Program-made: the position numbers and the translations under genes
In this document: positions 2,516 to 63,700 of the stretch, one piece after another
Numbering within the stretch: the first letter of the stretch is position 1
Layout: each line of letters opens with the position of its first letter
From: Clostridia bacterium
Lineage (GTDB): Bacteria > Bacillota > Clostridia > Oscillospirales > CAG-272
Reading direction: 5' to 3'
Length of the DNA: 64,000 bases
Assembly: GCA_017416185.1 (NCBI GenBank)
Contig: JAFQDF010000035.1
Location: forward strand, 51,521 to 115,520
The notes under the pieces: model-generated
Databases searched by the model: none
Told to the model about the DNA's origin: nothing
What the model saw: the letters and a program-made list of their open reading frames with translations, nothing else

Positions 2516-2757
2516 AGATGAATTGAAACCGAAGGTTTCATGAATTGCCTTCGGCATGAATTGGCTTCGCCATGAATTGAAAGCCGTTGGCTTTCATTAA
2601 GGAAGATTTTTGCCTTAGCAAAAATCAATTTCAATTAAATTGCTTTTCGGCATGTCGAAAAGTTACCTTAATGCACCATCGGTGCAATTCATGACGCATT
2701 AGCGTCAATTCATGATGCGTTAGTATCAATTCATGACAGCTATGCTGTCAATTCATT
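2516..2757. repeat. hairpin-string palindromic element, copy A1 (CATGAATTG / CAATTCATG linkers)
   Basis: Four CATGAATTG linkers each followed by a self-complementary insert. Then CATTAAGG, core hairpin GATTTTTGCC-tta-GCAAAAATC, second hairpin CTTTTCG..CGAAAAG and CCTTAATG. Then four self-complementary inserts each followed by CAATTCATG, the exact reverse complement of the left linker. Confidence 0.9.
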
Positions 2758-2775: not shown

Positions 2776-3480
2776 ATGGCACTTTTTGTTCTTGCCGACA
2801 CCCATCTGTCTATAACCACACATAAGCCGATGGATATTTTCGGATCCCGTTGGAAGGACCATACCGACAGAATAAGACAAGAGTGGGAAGCCGTGGTTTC
2901 TCCCGACGACACCGTGGTGATACCCGGAGATATCTCCTGGGGTATGAATTTTGAGGAGGCGAGAGAGGATTTTCTATTCCTTGACAGCCTTCCGGGGCAT
3001 AAGCTTATATCCAAGGGCAACCACGATTATTGGTGGGCGACAAAGAGTAAGCAGGATGCTTTTTTTGAAAAAGAGGGAATAACCACCATAAGCCAGCTTT
3101 ATAACAACGCTTATAAAGTAGATGAATATATGGTCTGCGGCTCCAGAGGCTGGTATAACGATGACCATAACGCACCCAAGGATTCCGACTATCAGAAGAT
3201 AGTCAACCGAGAGGTTGGACGTATGGAGCTGAGCATCAAGGCGGCAAACGATATTGACCCCAAACTTGAAAAGCTGATGTTTCTGCATTTTCCCCCTGTG
3301 TTCGGGGATTACGTATGCGAGGAGATAGTGGACTGTCTTGTGAGCAACGGTATCCGCCGCTGCTATTACGGTCATATCCACGGAAAATATTCCTGTCCTC
3401 CTGTTACAAGCTACAGAGGTATAGATTTTTATATCATTTCGGCGGACTATCTTGATTTCAAACCGATGTTAATTGATTAA
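2776..3480 (+). CDS. metallophosphoesterase (calcineurin-like phosphoesterase) family protein
   Basis: 234-aa ORF with LADTHL, GDISWG, GNHDYWW and GHIHG metal-binding motifs. GAAAGGAG SD lies 7 nt upstream. Confidence 0.8.
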   Translation: MALFVLADTHLSITTHKPMDIFGSRWKDHTDRIRQEWEAVVSPDDTVVIPGDISWGMNFEEAREDFLFLDSLPGHKLISKGNHDYWWATKSKQDAFFEKEGITTISQLYNNAYKVDEYMVCGSRGWYNDDHNAPKDSDYQKIVNREVGRMELSIKAANDIDPKLEKLMFLHFPPVFGDYVCEEIVDCLVSNGIRRCYYGHIHGKYSCPPVTSYRGIDFYIISADYLDFKPMLID

Positions 3481-3506
3481 CAAATTGAAAATTTTACATA
3501 TTTTAC

Positions 3507-3534
3507 TTGACTTTACATTATAAATAAGTACAAT
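3507..3534 (+). promoter_or_regulatory. candidate sigma-A promoter of tig
   Basis: TTGACT - 16 nt - TACAAT, about 45 nt upstream of the tig start. Confidence 0.5.
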
Positions 3535-5069: not shown

Positions 5070-5654
5070 ATGGCATTAGTACCAACCGTTATTGAACAGA
5101 CAAACAGAGGCGAGAGAGCATACGATATATACTCCAGACTCTTAAACGACCGTATCATTTTTCTTGCAGACGAGGTAAACGACGTGACTGCATCCCTTGT
5201 TGTGGCACAGCTTCTTTTCCTTGAGGCTCAGGATCCCGACAAGGATATCTGTATGTACATCAACAGCCCCGGAGGAAGCGTGTCCGCAGGTATGGCTATC
5301 TATGACACGATGAACTACATCAAGTGTGACGTATCCACCGTATGTATCGGTATGGCGGCAAGTATGGGCGCGTTCCTGCTTTCATCAGGTGCCAAGGGCA
5401 AGCGTATCGCACTTCCCAACAGCGAGATAATGATCCATCAGCCTTTAGGCGGTATGCAGGGTCAGGCATCTGACATCAAGATCCACGCAGACCACATTCT
5501 GCGCACCAAGGCTAAGCTCAACGAGATCCTTGCACTTAACACAGGCAAGCCTCTTGAGGTGATCGAGCGCGATACTGACCGTGACAACTTCTTAACTGCT
5601 CAGCAGGCTATGGAATACGGTCTTATAGACAAAGTTTTTGATAAGAGAGCGTAA
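5070..5654 (+). CDS. clpP: ATP-dependent Clp protease proteolytic subunit
   Basis: [25 protein letters not shown]... is a canonical ClpP N-terminus, with catalytic-Ser context [15 protein letters not shown] lies 8 nt before the ATG at 5070. The ORF-track start at 5016 is an upstream extension. Confidence 0.95.
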
Positions 5655-5660
5655 TTTTTA

Positions 5661-6920
5661 ATGGCAAACGAAAGCAATACAAACAATCAGAGCTACCGTT
5701 GCTCCTTCTGCGGCAGAGCAGAAAAGGACGTTATGTTCCTTATTCCTTCTCCCGTAGCTAAGGGTACCTTCATCTGCAACGATTGTGTGGATGCCTGTAT
5801 GGAGCTTTTAGGGGACTATGCTCCCGAGGCAGTAAGAACGGCAGGCGGCGGTAAGCTCACGTACGAGACTCTTCCCAAGCCTACAGAGATAAAGGCGACC
5901 CTTGACGAGTATGTTATAGGTCAGGACGGAGCAAAGAAGGCTCTGTCGGTTGCTGTATATAATCACTATAAGCGCATACTTTCCAAGGATAAAAAGAATG
6001 ATGACGACGTAGAGATCCAGAAAAGCAACGTTCTGCTGCTTGGTCCTACAAGCGTTGGTAAAACGTTTCTTGCCCAGAGTCTGGCAAAGACCCTGCAGGT
6101 TCCCTTTGCCATAGCGGATGCCACTACTCTTACCGAGGCAGGCTACGTAGGTGAGGACGTTGAGAATATTCTGCTTCGTCTTATTCAGGCGGCTGATTTT
6201 GACATCGAGCTTGCCGAGAAGGGAATAATCTATATCGACGAGATCGACAAGATATCCAGACGAAGCGAAAACCGCTCCATCACCCGTGACGTATCGGGCG
6301 AGGGCGTACAGCAGGCGCTTTTAAAGATACTTGAGGGAACTGTTTCCAACGTACCTCCTCAGGGCGGTCGTAAGCATCCCAATCAGGATTTTATACAGAT
6401 CAATACCGAGAATATCCTCTTTATCTGCGGCGGTGCTTTTGACGGTATCTCCGAGATAATAGAGAAGCGTAAGGGCAGCGGCTCTATGGGCTTTGGCGGC
6501 GAGGTGAAGACCAAGCAGGATAAGCAGCAGACCGCAATATACAAGGACGTACAGCCCCACGATATTATGAAATACGGACTTATCCCCGAGCTTGTGGGAC
6601 GTCTGCCCCTCATAGTCGGACTTGAGGGACTTGACCGTGACGCTCTTGTGCGTATCTTAAGAGAGCCCAAAAACTCGCTTATCAAGCAGTACAAGAAGCT
6701 CTTCGGTATGGATAATATGGATATCGAGTTTACCGACGATGCTCTCTATAAGGTGGCAGACCTTGCTATCGAGAGAAATATCGGTGCAAGAGGACTTCGC
6801 TCCATAATGGAGGAGATGATGCTCGACCTTATGTACGAGCTGCCTTCAAAGACCGACGTAACCAAGGTGACGGTGAACGCTGACGTGGTTACCGGTGAGG
6901 GGAAACCCACCGTAGAATAA
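5661..6920 (+). CDS. clpX: ATP-dependent Clp protease ATP-binding subunit ClpX
   Basis: N-terminal zinc-binding CSFCG..CNDC, Walker A GPTSVGKT and Walker [10 protein letters not shown]. Confidence 0.95.
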
Positions 6921-52853: not shown

Positions 52854-53289
52854 GCAGGATGTAGTTGAGGTCACCTCCGAGCTGAAAAAGCTTATTGTGA
52901 ACTCGGTAGCCGAGAGCTTAAAATACGAGGAATTTCCCGATAAATGCGAGGTTTCGGTTACCCTTGTGGATAACGAAGAGATCCATATATTAAACCGCGA
53001 ATACCGTGATGTGGACCGTCCCACCGACGTTCTGTCCTTTCCCATTTTTGACGAGGACGATATGGGCGGAAAAACAGTTCTCGGTGATATAGTTCTCTCC
53101 CTTGAAAGGGCAAGAGAGCAGGCCGAGGAGTTCGGACATTCCTTTGAACGTGAGGTTGCTTTTCTCACGGTACATTCAATGCTTCACCTTTTAGGCTACG
53201 ACCACGAGGAAGGAAAAGCCGCCGAGAGCGAAATGTTTTCACGTCAGGAAGCAATTTTATGCAAAATGGGTCTTGCACGAAATAAGTAA
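52816..53289 (+). CDS. ybeY: rRNA maturation RNase YbeY
   Basis: Zinc motif HSMLHLLGYDH and TDVLSFP. It overlaps the end of phoH by 38 nt, and no in-frame ATG lies further downstream. Confidence 0.9.
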   Translation: MRKNGHDIFIKNEQDVVEVTSELKKLIVNSVAESLKYEEFPDKCEVSVTLVDNEEIHILNREYRDVDRPTDVLSFPIFDEDDMGGKTVLGDIVLSLERAREQAEEFGHSFEREVAFLTVHSMLHLLGYDHEEGKAAESEMFSRQEAILCKMGLARNK

Positions 53290-53305
53290 ATATAGTATAA
53301 TATAT

Positions 53306-53495
53306 TGAATACACTTTGTGTATTCAGCTAAATTCGCTATGCGAGCTAAATGTGCAGAGCACGCTAAATTACTTCGTAGCTAAATTGACCTTCGGTCAGC
53401 TGATATGCGAATTTAATTTAGCTGTTTCACAGAAACAATTTAGCTATCACGCAAAGCGGGATAATTTAGCTTTGCACGTAAGGGCAAAATTTAGC
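53306..53495. repeat. hairpin-string palindromic element, copy B (AGCTAAATT / AATTTAGCT linkers)
   Basis: Lead hairpin TGAATACAC-tttg-TGTATTCA. Then 4 x GCTAAAT(T) linkers separated by mini-hairpins (TCGC/GCGA, GTGC/GCAC, TAC/GTA, TGACC/GGTCA). Centre AGCTGATATGCGAATTTAATTTAGCT. Then mini-hairpins separated by 3 further AATTTAGC(T) linkers. Confidence 0.85.
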
Positions 53496-53535
53496 CCAAC
53501 ATAAGATTTTTAAGATAATTGAGGACATATCGTTA

Positions 53536-54429
53536 ATGAAAAAAACAGGTTTTGTCGCAATAGTAGGTCGACCCAACGTAGGTAAATCCACATTGCTTAA
53601 CGCACTTTTGGGCGAAAAAATAGCTATCATATCAAAGAAGCCCCAGACCACCCGTAACCGTATAACAGGTATACTGACCCGAGGCGAAACACAGTTTGTT
53701 TTCCTTGACACTCCCGGTATGCATAACCCCAAGACAAAGCTGGGGGATTTTATGGTAAAGTCTGTTTCCTCTGCCATTGGCGACGTGGATGCGGCGATAC
53801 TTGTAGTCGAGGCGGGCGCAAAGCCCCACGCAATAGAGCTCGGATTGATAGAGAAGTTTAAAAAAACCGATATGCCCGCGCTTCTTGTTATCAACAAGAC
53901 GGATAAATCCGACGCAGGCAAGGTTGCCGAGACGATAAACGAATACGCACCTCTCTATGAGTTTTCCTCTGTAGTTCCGATCTCGGCGCTTAACAATGAC
54001 GGCGTTGATATCGTTCTTAACGAGACGGAGAGCTTTATGGAGGAGGGTGTATGGTTCTTCCCCGAGGATGCCATAACCGACCAGCCCGAACGTCAGATCG
54101 CGGCTGAGATAATCCGTGAGAAGATACTTCGTACCCTTGATGACGAGATACCCCACGGTACTGCGGTAGTTATAGAGGCGTTTGAAGAAAGCTCCAAGCT
54201 TATCAAAATAAGAGCCGAGATATTCTGCGAGAAGGCTTCTCACAAGGGTATCATCATCGGCAAGCACGGTGCGTCATTAAAGACTATCGGTTCCTATGCC
54301 CGTGAGGATATGGAGAAGTTCTTCGGCACCAAGGTATTCCTTGATCTCTGGGTCAAGGTAAAGGAGAACTGGAGAGACTCCAATTTCAATATAAGTAACT
54401 TCGGCTTCAAGGACGATATGGGAGAATAA
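53536..54429 (+). CDS. era: GTPase Era
   Basis: G1 GRPNVGKST, G3 DTPG, G4 NKTD and a C-terminal KH domain. Confidence 0.95.
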   Translation: MKKTGFVAIVGRPNVGKSTLLNALLGEKIAIISKKPQTTRNRITGILTRGETQFVFLDTPGMHNPKTKLGDFMVKSVSSAIGDVDAAILVVEAGAKPHAIELGLIEKFKKTDMPALLVINKTDKSDAGKVAETINEYAPLYEFSSVVPISALNNDGVDIVLNETESFMEEGVWFFPEDAITDQPERQIAAEIIREKILRTLDDEIPHGTAVVIEAFEESSKLIKIRAEIFCEKASHKGIIIGKHGASLKTIGSYAREDMEKFFGTKVFLDLWVKVKENWRDSNFNISNFGFKDDMGE

Positions 54430-60871: not shown

Positions 60872-62128
60872 ATGATCAACAAGAGCTATGAATTAGCAAA
60901 AGAGATCTATGCGGCACAGGGTATTGATACCGATGCTGCGATCGCTAAGCTTAAGAACATTCCCGTTTCACTTCACTGCTGGCAGGGTGACGACGTTATC
61001 GGCTTTGACCACGACGGCCCCCTTAACGGCGGTATCCAGACCACAGGTAACTATCCCGGCAAGGCAACCACTCCCGAACAGCTTATGGCTGATATGGACA
61101 AGGTTCTTTCCCTCTGTCCCGGTACCAAGAAGATCAACGTTCACGCTTGCTACGCTATCTTTGAGGACGGCAAGTTCGTAGACCGCGATAAGCTCGAGCC
61201 AAAGCATTTCGCTAAGTGGGTAGAGTTTGCAAAGGCACACGGCTGCGGTCTTGACTTCAACCCCACCTTCTTCTCCCATCCTATGCAGAATGACGGTCTT
61301 ACCCTTTCCAGCCCCGATGAGAACGTAAGAAAGTTCTGGGTAGAGCACGGTAAGGCTTGTATCCGCATTTCCGAGTATTTCGCAAAGGAAACAGGTATGC
61401 CCTGTGTTATGAACATCTGGATCGGCGACGGCTTCAAGGATATTCCCGCTGACCGTATGGGTCCCAGAATGAGATATAAGCAGTCTATCGAGGAGATCCT
61501 CTCCGAGCCTTATGACTTCAACCTCGTTAAGCCCTGCGTTGAGTCCAAGGTATTCGGTATCGGTGTTGAGTCTTACACTGCAGGCTCTGCAGAGTTCGCT
61601 CTCTCCGTTGTTGCGGCAAATGCCGATAAGTGCATTCCCCTTATGGACAACGGTCACTACCATCCCACCGAGGTCGTTTCCGACAAGATCCCCGCACTTC
61701 TTTGCTTCTTCCCCGAGATCGCACTCCACATCACCCGTGGTGTTCGTTGGGACTCCGACCACGTTGTTCTCTTTGACGACGAGACCAAGGAAATGGCAAA
61801 GGAGATCGTTCGTTGCGACGCTCTTGACCGTGCATACATGGCTCTTGACTACTTTGATGCTTCCATCAACCGTATCTCCGCTTGGACCACAGGCTTCAGA
61901 AGCTGGCAGAAGGCTCTGCTTGCGGCTATATGTACTCCCAACGCAGCTCTCAAGGAGCTTCAGAATGCAGGCAACTTCACCAAGCTTATGGTTATGCAGG
62001 AAGAGGCTAAGATGCTTCCCTTCGGCGCAGTATGGGCTAAGTACTGTGAGGAATGCGGCGTAGCAGGCGACGCTTCCTGGTTTGACGAAGTAGAGAAGTA
62101 CGAAACTGAGGTACTTTCTAAGAGATGA
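60872..62128 (+). CDS. rhaA: L-rhamnose isomerase
   Basis: 418 aa. SLHCWQGDDV, HYHPTE and WDSDHVV motifs of RhaA. Confidence 0.9.
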   Translation: MINKSYELAKEIYAAQGIDTDAAIAKLKNIPVSLHCWQGDDVIGFDHDGPLNGGIQTTGNYPGKATTPEQLMADMDKVLSLCPGTKKINVHACYAIFEDGKFVDRDKLEPKHFAKWVEFAKAHGCGLDFNPTFFSHPMQNDGLTLSSPDENVRKFWVEHGKACIRISEYFAKETGMPCVMNIWIGDGFKDIPADRMGPRMRYKQSIEEILSEPYDFNLVKPCVESKVFGIGVESYTAGSAEFALSVVAANADKCIPLMDNGHYHPTEVVSDKIPALLCFFPEIALHITRGVRWDSDHVVLFDDETKEMAKEIVRCDALDRAYMALDYFDASINRISAWTTGFRSWQKALLAAICTPNAALKELQNAGNFTKLMVMQEEAKMLPFGAVWAKYCEECGVAGDASWFDEVEKYETEVLSKR

Positions 62129-62364
62129 ATTGAACCCTATGGGTTCATAAATTGAGCCTGGCGGCCCATGAATTGACAACTTTGTTGTCATGAATTGTGT
62201 CACAAGGACACATTAAGGAAAGTTTTTGCCTTTAGGCAAAAACAATTCTAATTGAATTAGTTTTCGCCCAAGGGCGAAAAGTTACCTTAATGCACCGTAG
62301 GAGCAATTCATGACCGTAGGTCAATTCATGGTGAAACCAATTCATGGCGAAGCCAATTCATTTA
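62125..62364. repeat. hairpin-string palindromic element, copy A2 (CATGAATTG / CAATTCATG linkers)
   Basis: It has the same order of modules as 2516..2757: 4 linkers + inserts, CATTAAGG, core AGTTTTTGCC..GGCAAAAAC, second hairpin TTTTCGCC..GGCGAAAA, CCTTAATG, then 4 inserts + linkers. The first linker contains the rhaA TGA stop. Confidence 0.9.
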
Positions 62365-63464: not shown

Positions 63465-63700
63465 GAAAGCCGTCCTTCGGGACGGCTTTCACGATATAAA
63501 TCCCTTTCGGGATTTGCGATATTCCCTATGGGGAGCGATATGCCTAACGGCGCGATATGTCCTGCGGGACGTGGGGGGATTTATATCATATCGCGTCTGC
63601 TTTAGCAGATATATCGCTTTTATCAAAGATAAAAATATCGCATTTGACCGAAGGTCAAATATATCGCAATTTGTATCCTAAGGTTACAAATTTTATATCG
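63465..63700. repeat. hairpin-string palindromic element, copy C (GCGATAT / ATATCGC linkers)
   Basis: Lead hairpin GAAAGCCGTCC-ttcg-GGACGGCTTTC. Then 4 x (G)CGATAT linkers with mini-hairpins (AATCCC/GGGATT, TCCC/GGGA, GCC/GGC, GTCC/GGAC). Centre GTGGGGGGATTTATATCATATCGC. Then 4 mini-hairpins separated by ATATCGC, the last linker being the variant TTATATCG. Confidence 0.85.

Follow-up and report, generated by a model that had tools for sequence, protein, structure and literature searches.

Among described systems, the REP/BIME elements of Enterobacteria and Pseudomonas, with their RAYT proteins, come close to the word-and-hairpin arrays reported here from a 64-kb stretch of DNA (the window), one of which, E2, lies between ybeY and era. 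They too are abundant extragenic hairpin repeats, mostly found 3' of genes; they cluster as mosaics in which conserved linkers join copies of either orientation, direct or inverted, and the gene for their cognate protein is itself flanked by repeats. The defining REP/BIME unit is a conserved imperfect palindrome of 20-40 nt, tagged with GTAG or CGTC. In REP the hairpin is conserved and the linker is secondary, whereas the arrays keep an invariant linker word and leave the sequence of the hairpin free. In addition, RAYT is an IS200/IS605-type tyrosine transposase, while the partner of the arrays is an Avd-like four-helix bundle, and the arrays have a fixed layout of lead hairpin, four units, centre and four inverted units. 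E2 was not assigned to REP/BIME, since its hairpins differ between units and copies with only the linker word conserved, nor to a RAYT system, the array-associated gene being of the PF05635 family.

The intervening sequences (IVS) in 23S rRNA of Coxiella and Leptospira, with their S23p/PF05635 ORF, likewise pair a highly structured inverted-repeat element with a PF05635 gene, and the ORF-bearing IVS of Coxiella is regarded as selfish (PMC4990558). Many array copies lie at rRNA operon ends, recalling the IVS, and in one locus (L167) an ORF between forward and reverse arrays resembles the IVS ORF inside its stem. However, the arrays are never inside 23S rDNA, the rRNA-linked copies lying after 5S/tRNA genes and a terminator; as a rule the whole array is upstream of the gene, its build is modular, and many copies are gene-less orphans. 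E2 is not an insertion into helix 25 or 45 of 23S rRNA but lies between protein-coding genes.

The BOX elements of Streptococcus pneumoniae and MITEs are also small, modular, intergenic, foldable and multi-copy, with variable internal modules, and they influence neighbouring genes. The arrays have no sequence relation to BOX, their modules being word-plus-hairpin units of 16-28 nt instead of the 45-nt boxB, and differ from MITEs in having no target-site duplication and no transposase-bearing parent. For E2, a MITE with terminal inverted repeats was rejected because a leader was replaced and nothing duplicated, and a transposase-encoding parent because PF05635 is the sole gene found between or beside arrays (L167 and the cassettes described below).

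TIGR arrays consist of two alternating repeats with 9-nt non-palindromic spacers in a 36-nt unit, together with a Nop-domain Tas protein; like the present arrays, they have very short repeats (8-12 nt) that escape standard repeat finders and lie beside a small cognate gene (PMC12045711). E2 is not of the TIGR-Tas type, having one repeat type, self-complementary inserts of 7-19 nt, and ybeY and era as neighbours, nor is it a CRISPR (23-50-nt repeats, unique spacers of similar length, cas genes), its words being 8-9 nt long and its inserts hairpins. The array-linked gene shares fold and family (PF05635, cd16375) with Avd, the accessory protein essential for DGR retrohoming, which fits a nucleic-acid-associated role for PF05635 (PMC10053308). 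Unlike in DGRs, neither a reverse transcriptase nor a template/variable repeat pair was noticed beside the array-bearing cassettes; the genes downstream of 78 of them are diverse and mutually unrelated and start directly after the PF05635 gene.

No match was obtained with Rfam across the whole window at gathering score, and an E-value threshold applied to E2 gave nothing credible, RsaJ scoring best with 20.8 bits where its gathering score is 100. A literature search, in which subscription journals were thinly covered so that an earlier account is possible, returned no description of such arrays or of their PF05635 link. The family is apparently undescribed so far.

The array between ybeY and era and its family

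E2 occupies positions 53306-53495 of the window (190 bases) in the gene order yqfD-phoH-ybeY-E2-era-recO, where ybeY carries PF02130 and era carries MMR_HSR1 and KH_2. It comprises a lead hairpin, four forward words, a centre and four reverse-complement words; the fixed word has nine letters and recurs in eight copies, and a variable mini-hairpin separates each pair of neighbouring words within either arm. The features of the locus are as follows.

53273..53301, + strand: resident promoter-like site, TTGCAC-17 nt-TATAAT, read from the sequence; overlaps the ybeY stop codon
53306..53326, + strand: lead hairpin, an inverted repeat with arms TGAATACAC (53306-53314) and GTGTATTCA (53318-53326) and loop TTT; left end of the inserted segment, 5 nt past the -10 box
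53326..53397, + strand: left arm, words AGCTAAATT, AGCTAAAT, GCTAAATT and AGCTAAATT at 53326, 53344, 53363 and 53378, with a mini-hairpin after each word
53335-53343, 53352-53362, 53371-53377 and 53387-53397, + strand: left-arm hairpins hp1, hp2, hp3 and hp4; compensatory changes in hp1, hp2 and hp4
53398..53414, + strand: centre AGCT-GATAT-GCGAATTT (AGCTGATATGCGAATTT), which sets the polarity of E2
53415..53495, + strand: right arm, four reverse words AATTTAGCT at 53415, 53437, 53463 and 53488; words and inverted repeats
53424-53436, 53446-53462 and 53472-53487, + strand: right-arm hairpins hp5, hp6 and hp7 (the last with a GTAA loop); 4, 5 and 4 base pairs with both-side changes
53496..53535, + strand: right-hand spacer that came with E2, unlike the empty-site leader; its RBS GAGGA (53521-53525) serves era
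53291..53576, no strand: tract shared almost unchanged by the window and the L002 species (a single mismatch in 286 nt), within flanks of 84-88% identity

On the + strand, GCTAAAT starts at 53327, 53345, 53363 and 53379, and its reverse complement at 53416, 53438, 53464 and 53489. The left arm reads AGCTAAATT CGCTATGCG AGCTAAAT GTGCAGAGCAC GCTAAATT ACTTCGT AGCTAAATT GACCTTCGGTC, its inserts being CGC-TAT-GCG, GTGC-AGA-GCAC, AC-TTCG-T and GACC-TTC-GGTC. After the centre AGCTGATATGCGAATTT follow AATTTAGCT GTTTCACAGAAAC AATTTAGCT ATCACGCAAAGCGGGAT AATTTAGCT TTGCACGTAAGGGCAA AATTTAGC, with the inserts GTTTC-ACA-GAAAC, ATCACGC-AAA-GCGGGAT and TTGCAC-GTAA-GGGCAA, the latter two with one A.G mismatch each. 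The era ATG is at 53536, so that E2 ends 40 nt before it, farther than gene-linked copies end from their own ATG. The predicted folding energy of E2 has a z-score of about -6 on either strand. A 62-aa ORF at 53316-53504 was dismissed as coding, since the hairpins vary by compensatory changes and indels.

A sequence-only reading of this DNA had proposed the 4+4 architecture, a mini-hairpin with a GUAA loop and a recurrence of the same build with unrelated linkers. All parts of the architecture were found in place, the GUAA loop is that of the last right-arm hairpin, and the build recurs in the AGCTAAATT, CATGAATTG, GCGATAT, GTGAAAT and GGCTAAATC word families; further word-plus-hairpin arrays use GTTATATT and other words. 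That reading had also named shuffled sequence as the comparison on which the arrangement would stand or fall. GCTAAAT occurs ten times in the window, near the chance expectation, and eight of the ten lie inside 170 nt of E2. Using a detector that required at least four equal 7-mers, spaced 5-32 nt apart by differing inserts able to form hairpins, we found five arrays in 0.5 Mb of real sequence, made up of the window and 80 related loci. After Markov shuffling of this sequence, all 20 randomised versions were free of arrays, so the arrangement stands and lies far beyond chance. A simpler scan of the window for forward and then reversed k-mers yielded four elements: E1 (2517-2757, CATGAATTG words), E2, E3 (62124-62362, CATGAATTG words) and E4 (63467-63700, GCGATAT words). 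E1 and E3 have a common structured centre of about 105 nt, and the genes adjoining all four elements are of housekeeping type.

We then scanned one genome per species, first with three spaced GCTAAAT words and next with the centre GCGAATTTAATTTAGCT as the query. The three-word scan and the scan for the exact centre GCGAATTTAATTTAGCT each returned at least 120 stretches, those with the centre mostly from Clostridia MAGs. Apart from chance matches in other phyla, the matches listed are from rumen and gut Clostridia MAGs, including Oscillospiraceae, Ruminococcus, Acutalibacteraceae, Ructibacterium, Faecousia and Congzhengia. Among those listed, 131 centre matches were parsed, and the commonest complete layout was 4+4 (48 copies); 15 complete copies among the matches listed had a 5+4 layout, in which the fifth is a pseudo-word in the lead hairpin, and the remaining ones had lost or gained one or two units. 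In total, more than 250 independent copies with a common layout were found across species.

The signature of the family is GCGAATTT followed by the first reverse word, and GCGAATTTAATTTAGCT hardly varies in an alignment (A1) that joins E2 over its full length to 29 other copies. Hairpin types also follow a conserved order: on the left CGC..GCG, GTGC..GCAC, ACTTCGT and GACCTTCGGTC, then the centre, and on the right GTTTC..GAAAC or ACTCC..GGAGT, an AT....AT hairpin with tandem G.A mismatches, and TTGCA..TGCAA. Hairpins of the form GAATnnn...nnnATTC abut the first word in many copies and are equivalent to the E2 lead hairpin. E2 itself has eight words AGCTAAAT(T) and the centre GCGAATTT, and its row in A1 contains every hairpin type, with compensatory differences; the last word is followed by era rather than by a PF05635 gene. 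By its sequence, E2 is thus a canonical member of a large family in rumen and gut Clostridia of Oscillospirales type. Conservation of a design in place of a sequence, as had been proposed, applies between word families and fails within that of E2, where the words, the centre GCGAATTTAATTTAGCT and the hairpins ACTTCGT, GACCTTCGGTC and GTGCnnnGCAC are kept across dozens of species. The layout of the full element is well supported: lead hairpin, four word-plus-hairpin units, a centre AGCT-N5-GCGAATTT, three inverted units and a final reverse word.

The units also have a strand polarity. When turned so that the word reads ATTTAGC, they contained the loops GAA 38 times (TTC 0) and GCA 22 times (TGC 0), as well as GTAA (12), GCAA (8), GTA (6) and GTCA (6), the reverse complements of which were never seen; C-TT-G loops numbered 21 against 3 in reverse complement. 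The polarity is the same in both arms and holds too in the GCGATAT and GTGAAAT families, so that each arm, taken whole, is the other kind of arm inverted. The two arms consequently have their stable G(N)NA loops on opposite strands.

Association of the arrays with PF05635 genes

Small PF05635 ORFs in the fetched loci had a 4+4 element directly upstream in 13 of 15 cases, one of the elements being of the GCGATAT family. We also sampled by protein instead of by element, taking 78 usable relatives of one PF05635 protein (at least 80% identity) from many species, and essentially all had a AGCTAAATT element upstream of the ATG. A strict two-sided test was passed by 57 of the 78, in which the element mostly ends 23-28 nt, and in a few about 50 nt, before the ATG; a further 17 were one-sided or partial, with 20-28 nt or about 140-200 nt between the detected array and the ATG, and the remaining four were missed by the detector with the element visible by eye. 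Over the sample as a whole, the distance from element to ATG is mostly 23-28 nt, and a minority of loci have about 50 or 140-150 nt. Arrays downstream of the PF05635 gene were rare (3/78). Several such cassettes occur per genome, with unrelated genes directly downstream that differ by locus.

A metagenome search with a GCGATAT-linked paralogue gave 80 more loci. Proteins at least 62% identical to this paralogue had GCGATAT arrays, mostly ending about 15 nt before the ATG, and more distant PF05635 proteins (N-terminus MAESKLRDLSTDFAV...) had GTGAAAT arrays. All 150 PF05635 ORFs with enough upstream sequence were clustered at 70% identity, with the following result.

Cluster A: 89 members, 88 with AGCTAAATT words
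Cluster B: 22 members, 20 with GCGATAT words
Cluster C: 27 members, 24 with GTGAAAT words

The three PF05635 subfamilies thus correspond one-to-one to the three word families in 132 of 138 members, and no assignment was discordant. The ORF of L167 is a further PF05635 paralogue, lying between six forward and four reverse GGCTAAATC units. The closest solved homologue of the PF05635 protein is 2RLD, an uncharacterised protein with five chains in the entry. To our knowledge, no role has been assigned to the free-standing members of this large family ('23S rRNA IVS protein', a four-helix bundle).

Gene calls near the elements were made with a codon-usage gene caller trained on these loci. Among the matches listed, with elements turned to the orientation found in the window, the upstream gene was co-oriented with the element in 77 cases and opposed in 15, and the flanking genes were arranged (+,+) in 36, (+,-) in 25, (-,-) in 7 and (-,+) in 4. 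One-sided arrays, of which there are few, were mixed in their orientation relative to genes. Many copies begin right after the T-run of a terminator, several of them at rRNA operon ends in the order 23S-5S-tRNA-tRNA-terminator-element. Another large group has TTGNNN-17-TA(G/T)AAT right before the lead hairpin, with conserved hexamers and unrelated spacers. Its -10 box ends 22, 26 or 27 nt ahead of the first word in 36 of 69 gene-linked loci, while such a motif lay anywhere in 12% of random 110-nt windows. Judged by these hexamers, the promoter abutting the lead hairpin is of sigma-70 type; reading the conserved TTGGCATCTAAA...TATAAT block as a sigma-54 or forespore-sigma promoter is less likely, as the -12 GC is not conserved. 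In right-arm stems, G.T mismatches outnumbered A.C on the putatively transcribed strand by 14 to 2. Together, these data lend good support to the view that, in dozens of gut and rumen Clostridia species, the element serves as the promoter-abutting, probably transcribed leader of a PF05635 gene. Within the 64-kb window no PF05635 gene was found, and E2 is well explained as an orphan copy of the leader module of the PF05635 cassette family, comparable to the orphans at rRNA operon ends.

We propose, with a probability of roughly 40%, that the words are recognition sites read by a cognate PF05635 oligomer and the hairpins are spacers, as the association suggests. The 8-9-nt words would be sequence-specific sites for the oligomer, and the hairpins would act as structural spacers in which shape matters and sequence does not. 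Binding of PF05635 to an array in a leader would set the expression of the downstream gene: at PF05635 genes this would amount to autoregulation, and at orphan copies genes such as era would be captured under PF05635 control.

History of E2 and the possibility of a mobile DNA

Among 80 era loci of related species, E2 was found only in L002. In L001, L003, L004 and L005, where Era is 95-98% identical, as well as in relatives farther away, the same TATAATATATT is followed by a leader of about 29 nt. The ybeY-era gap of the closest relatives is about 50 nt with no gene in it, which does not bear out an earlier remark that the element takes the slot of dgkA and cdd; E2 replaced a short leader. The lead hairpin is absent from empty sites, and the whole stretch up to the era ATG, RBS included, differs between filled and empty sites. 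It is therefore well supported that E2 replaced the era leader of about 29 nt, from 5 nt past the -10 box to the era ATG.

The TTGCAC-17-TATAAT site at 53273-53301 was missed by a simple promoter scan, and its -35 hexamer matches the consensus at three of six positions. All close relatives share it, whether they carry the element or not, and by this conservation the promoter-like site belongs to the host locus and not to the insertion. Since this resident site is conserved in element-free relatives and E2 starts 5 nt after it, E2 is most likely the 5' leader of era, and there is good support for era now being read, as the sequence predicts, through a structured leader of about 230 nt.

Compared with L002, the window has phoH, ybeY, era and recO genes of 84-88% DNA identity, while 53291-53576 shows one mismatch in 286 nt (99.6% identity), the right-hand spacer 53496..53535 being identical bar 1 nt. 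A near-identical tract inside such flanks indicates that the insertion allele crossed between the two lineages recently, and on this sequence comparison the tract is the footprint of a recent horizontal exchange. Its slight reach into the conserved flanks fits homologous recombination, not transposition. The other copies in the L002 genome (L117, L260) are very unlike E2, giving no sign of a recent burst. The sequence-only reading had touched on none of the PF05635 link, the upstream promoter, the strand polarity of the units and this horizontal spread.

The presence/absence polymorphism at ybeY-era is among the observations expected if a small selfish cassette, mobile as DNA or via cDNA, has the arrays as its ends, E2 being a gene-less, MITE-like copy. 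The G(N)NA mini-hairpins would then form in single-stranded DNA, and PF05635 would be a mobility accessory as Avd is for DGR retrohoming. Several copies per genome before unrelated genes, spacers with nested arrays of different families, PF05635 genes interrupted by arrays, the near-identical allele in two species and the mirror-image polarity of the arms, which resembles transposon ends, all agree with such a cassette, as does the selfish standing given to PF05635-bearing IVS elements (PMC4990558). However, alignment of filled and empty ybeY-era sites revealed no target-site duplication at E2, and no transposase, recombinase or reverse transcriptase was present among the genes read beside cassettes. 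PF05635 itself is a helical bundle of 120 aa and is not known to have a catalytic site. Copies in the same genome (L002, L117, L260) are strongly diverged, the interspecies tract extends into conserved flanks as in ordinary homologous recombination, and the strong orientation bias and conserved promoter point to host use. We therefore consider a mobile DNA rather unlikely.

Constraint on words and hairpins

The seven hairpin helices in A1 hold 22 base pairs with changes on both sides (112 cells), a level of covariation reached in none of 500 shuffles, and slid registers were only 27-44% paired. Across the four helices that forward and reverse words could form, none of the 34 word:anti-word pairs in A1 had a both-side change, the columns being either invariant or departing only through unpaired cells. 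The words are invariant at all eight places of the element while the intervening hairpins covary, so that the hairpins are real folded structures and the words are constrained in their sequence.

Pairing between the two arms of E2, as predicted by its minimum-energy fold (z about -6), is possible. It is central to the explanation in which the transcript is a self-folding RNA rod, independent of protein, with four identical helices of 8-9 bp and three four-way junctions bearing the mini-hairpins, which would stabilise the mRNA, offer a site to RNase III or insulate one cistron from the next. The fold pairs the words in register, the numbers of forward and reverse words are balanced (4+4 in 48 and 5+4 in 15 of the matches listed), and the element is apparently transcribed and oriented with its neighbours. 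The alignment nevertheless speaks against the word pairing that the first description had implied: besides the missing covariation, the column pair 25:160 is broken without compensation in 15 of the 30 copies. This break is the variant AATTTCGCT of the third reverse word, which co-occurs 12/12 with a short form of the adjacent hairpin and not with a change in the partner word, and the variant AGCGAAATT is likewise unmatched in the partner arm. Moreover, one-sided arrays exist, with ten words in L158:4015-4230 and L116:6047-6241 and eight in L166, and L125 has a homologue of the left half of E2. Pairing alone would explain neither the equal sequence of the four helices nor the match of word to PF05635 subfamily. 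Kissing-loop contacts between the hairpin pair at each predicted junction were rejected, loop-loop complementarity being no higher within than between elements. These observations make the rod distinctly unlikely.

An array of guide RNAs of the CRISPR or TIGR type, in which repeats are processed into small RNAs whose variable parts target nucleic acids, would also alternate short repeats with variable inserts and have an adjacent small gene that co-varies with the repeat. The variable parts here, however, are self-complementary hairpins of 7-19 nt instead of spacers, and compensatory changes preserve them from species to species, unlike sequence that has been acquired; the arrays have a single repeat type instead of two alternating ones, no 36-nt period, and no Nop-domain Tas or cas gene nearby, which makes this explanation very improbable. 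A chance arrangement or plain tandem repeat in AT-rich spacer DNA, for which nothing more than the low complexity of the words speaks, is refuted by the absence of arrays from all 20 shuffles and the common layout of the >250 independent copies.

Returning to recognition of the words by PF05635, invariant words with covarying hairpins are the pattern expected of a sequence reader with structural spacers. Together with the fixed place of the array next to the RBS of the partner gene and the one word per subfamily, they support the words as candidate recognition sites. On the other side, gene and leader could have descended together as one cassette, which would also produce the one-to-one map. 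A protein that reads RNA would face two different words, AGCUAAAUU and AAUUUAGCU, within a single transcript, and the arms look optimal on opposite strands, which a simple single-transcript model does not explain. The lack of a PF05635 gene in the 64 kb and the 40 nt between E2 and the era ATG, more than at gene-linked copies, also speak against it. More broadly, the free-standing Avd-like PF05635 proteins might be readers of programmable 8-9-nt words, one per subfamily, whose arrays have spread as portable leader modules controlling arbitrary genes, a generalization that we regard as somewhat doubtful. If true, era and, elsewhere, whole operons and rRNA-operon ends would be under PF05635 control, and gut Clostridia would have a new kind of modular protein/nucleic-acid recognition system.

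The strict, subtype-specific partnership between PF05635 and arrays offers a first testable handle on the role of free-standing PF05635, and a code in which each protein subtype has its own word would give nature a compact means of recognition, possibly one that could be re-targeted. The arrays are frequent (four in this 64-kb window) and invisible to Rfam and standard repeat finders. Because they carry or follow promoters and an RBS, they would alter how essential genes, era among them, are organised into transcription units, and they also sit at rRNA-operon ends; the E2 allele is a case of such a leader exchanged between species. Carriage by phage was rejected: in viral contigs we found six exact matches to the centre, only one of which (L464) is a real element, of half length.

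Exchange of E2 between species

Comparison of the region around E2, the word-and-hairpin array between ybeY and era (window 53306-53495), with locus L002, which carries the E2 allele of another species, revealed a single mismatch over the 286 nt of window 53291-53576; the surrounding genes are 84-88% identical between both species. This 286-nt tract is a footprint of recombination around the E2 insertion. A promoter-like site, TTGCAC-17-TATAAT (window 53273-53301), overlaps the ybeY stop codon and is kept in all close relatives, suggesting that era is served by a promoter of its own in this lineage.

Related elements inside and outside the window

Three other word-and-hairpin elements were found in the window, as listed below.

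Other word-and-hairpin elements in the window
2517-2757: CATGAATTG-word element, 4+4 (four forward and four reverse-complement words), between thrC-like and phosphoesterase genes
62124-62362: CATGAATTG-word element, 4+4, between rhaA and a SIS-domain gene
63467-63700: GCGATAT-word element, a lead hairpin followed by 4-5 + 4-5 words

The centre of both CATGAATTG elements is the same structured segment, CATTAAGG...CCTTAATG, which spans about 105 nt and contains three hairpins. The GCGATAT element belongs to the same family that is found elsewhere 5' of cluster-B genes of PF05635 (23S-rRNA-IVS/Avd-like), and the hairpin GACCGAAGGTC is common to it and the AGCTAAATT-word family, of which E2 is an orphan copy.

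Among the related loci, L226 (1-773) carries an element immediately 3' of an rRNA-operon end, in the order 23S-5S-tRNA-tRNA-terminator, and many other element copies likewise lie directly after a tRNA CCA end and a terminator. L464:1150-1310 is a real element, present as a half, on the only such viral contig among the exact matches to the centre of the E2 family; the five other exact matches in viral contigs were dismissed as chance.

Rearranged cassettes and flanking sequences

On the reverse strand of L209, a PF05635 ORF following the element at 3328-3513 (reverse-strand coordinates) is interrupted after about 30 nt by a AACTTCAC-word array, and in L180, upstream of 5517-5882, a PF05635 5' fragment precedes a complete element and gene. 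These two arrangements indicate that arrays invade the cassettes to which they belong or cause them to rearrange. Nest-like spacers were also observed, in which TCGATAT, GTTATATT, CATGAATTG and CATAACT word arrays adjoin AGCTAAATT elements, in the right flanks of the latter at L205, L211, L218, L221, L242 and L117.

The right flanks of many elements (for example, L268, L275, L206 and L289) contain a conserved block, (T)TGGCATCTAAAnnGTTCACTGAnTcTATAAT, after the last word or before the next lead hairpin; its hexamers resemble -35 and -10 boxes but lie 20 nt apart, which makes the block an uncertain promoter. At L186, L208, L287, L288, L132, L236, L258, L276, L230 and L243, a long hairpin, AACCCACTATGACACTTTC...GAAAGnTGTCAnAGTGGGTT, with TGTTTCTTC after it, recurs about 60 nt beyond the downstream end of the element; it could represent either another repeat family or a terminator that these loci share. 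At about position 6290 of L116, a parS-like sequence, TGTTTCACGTGAAA, adjoins a one-sided array of 10 words.
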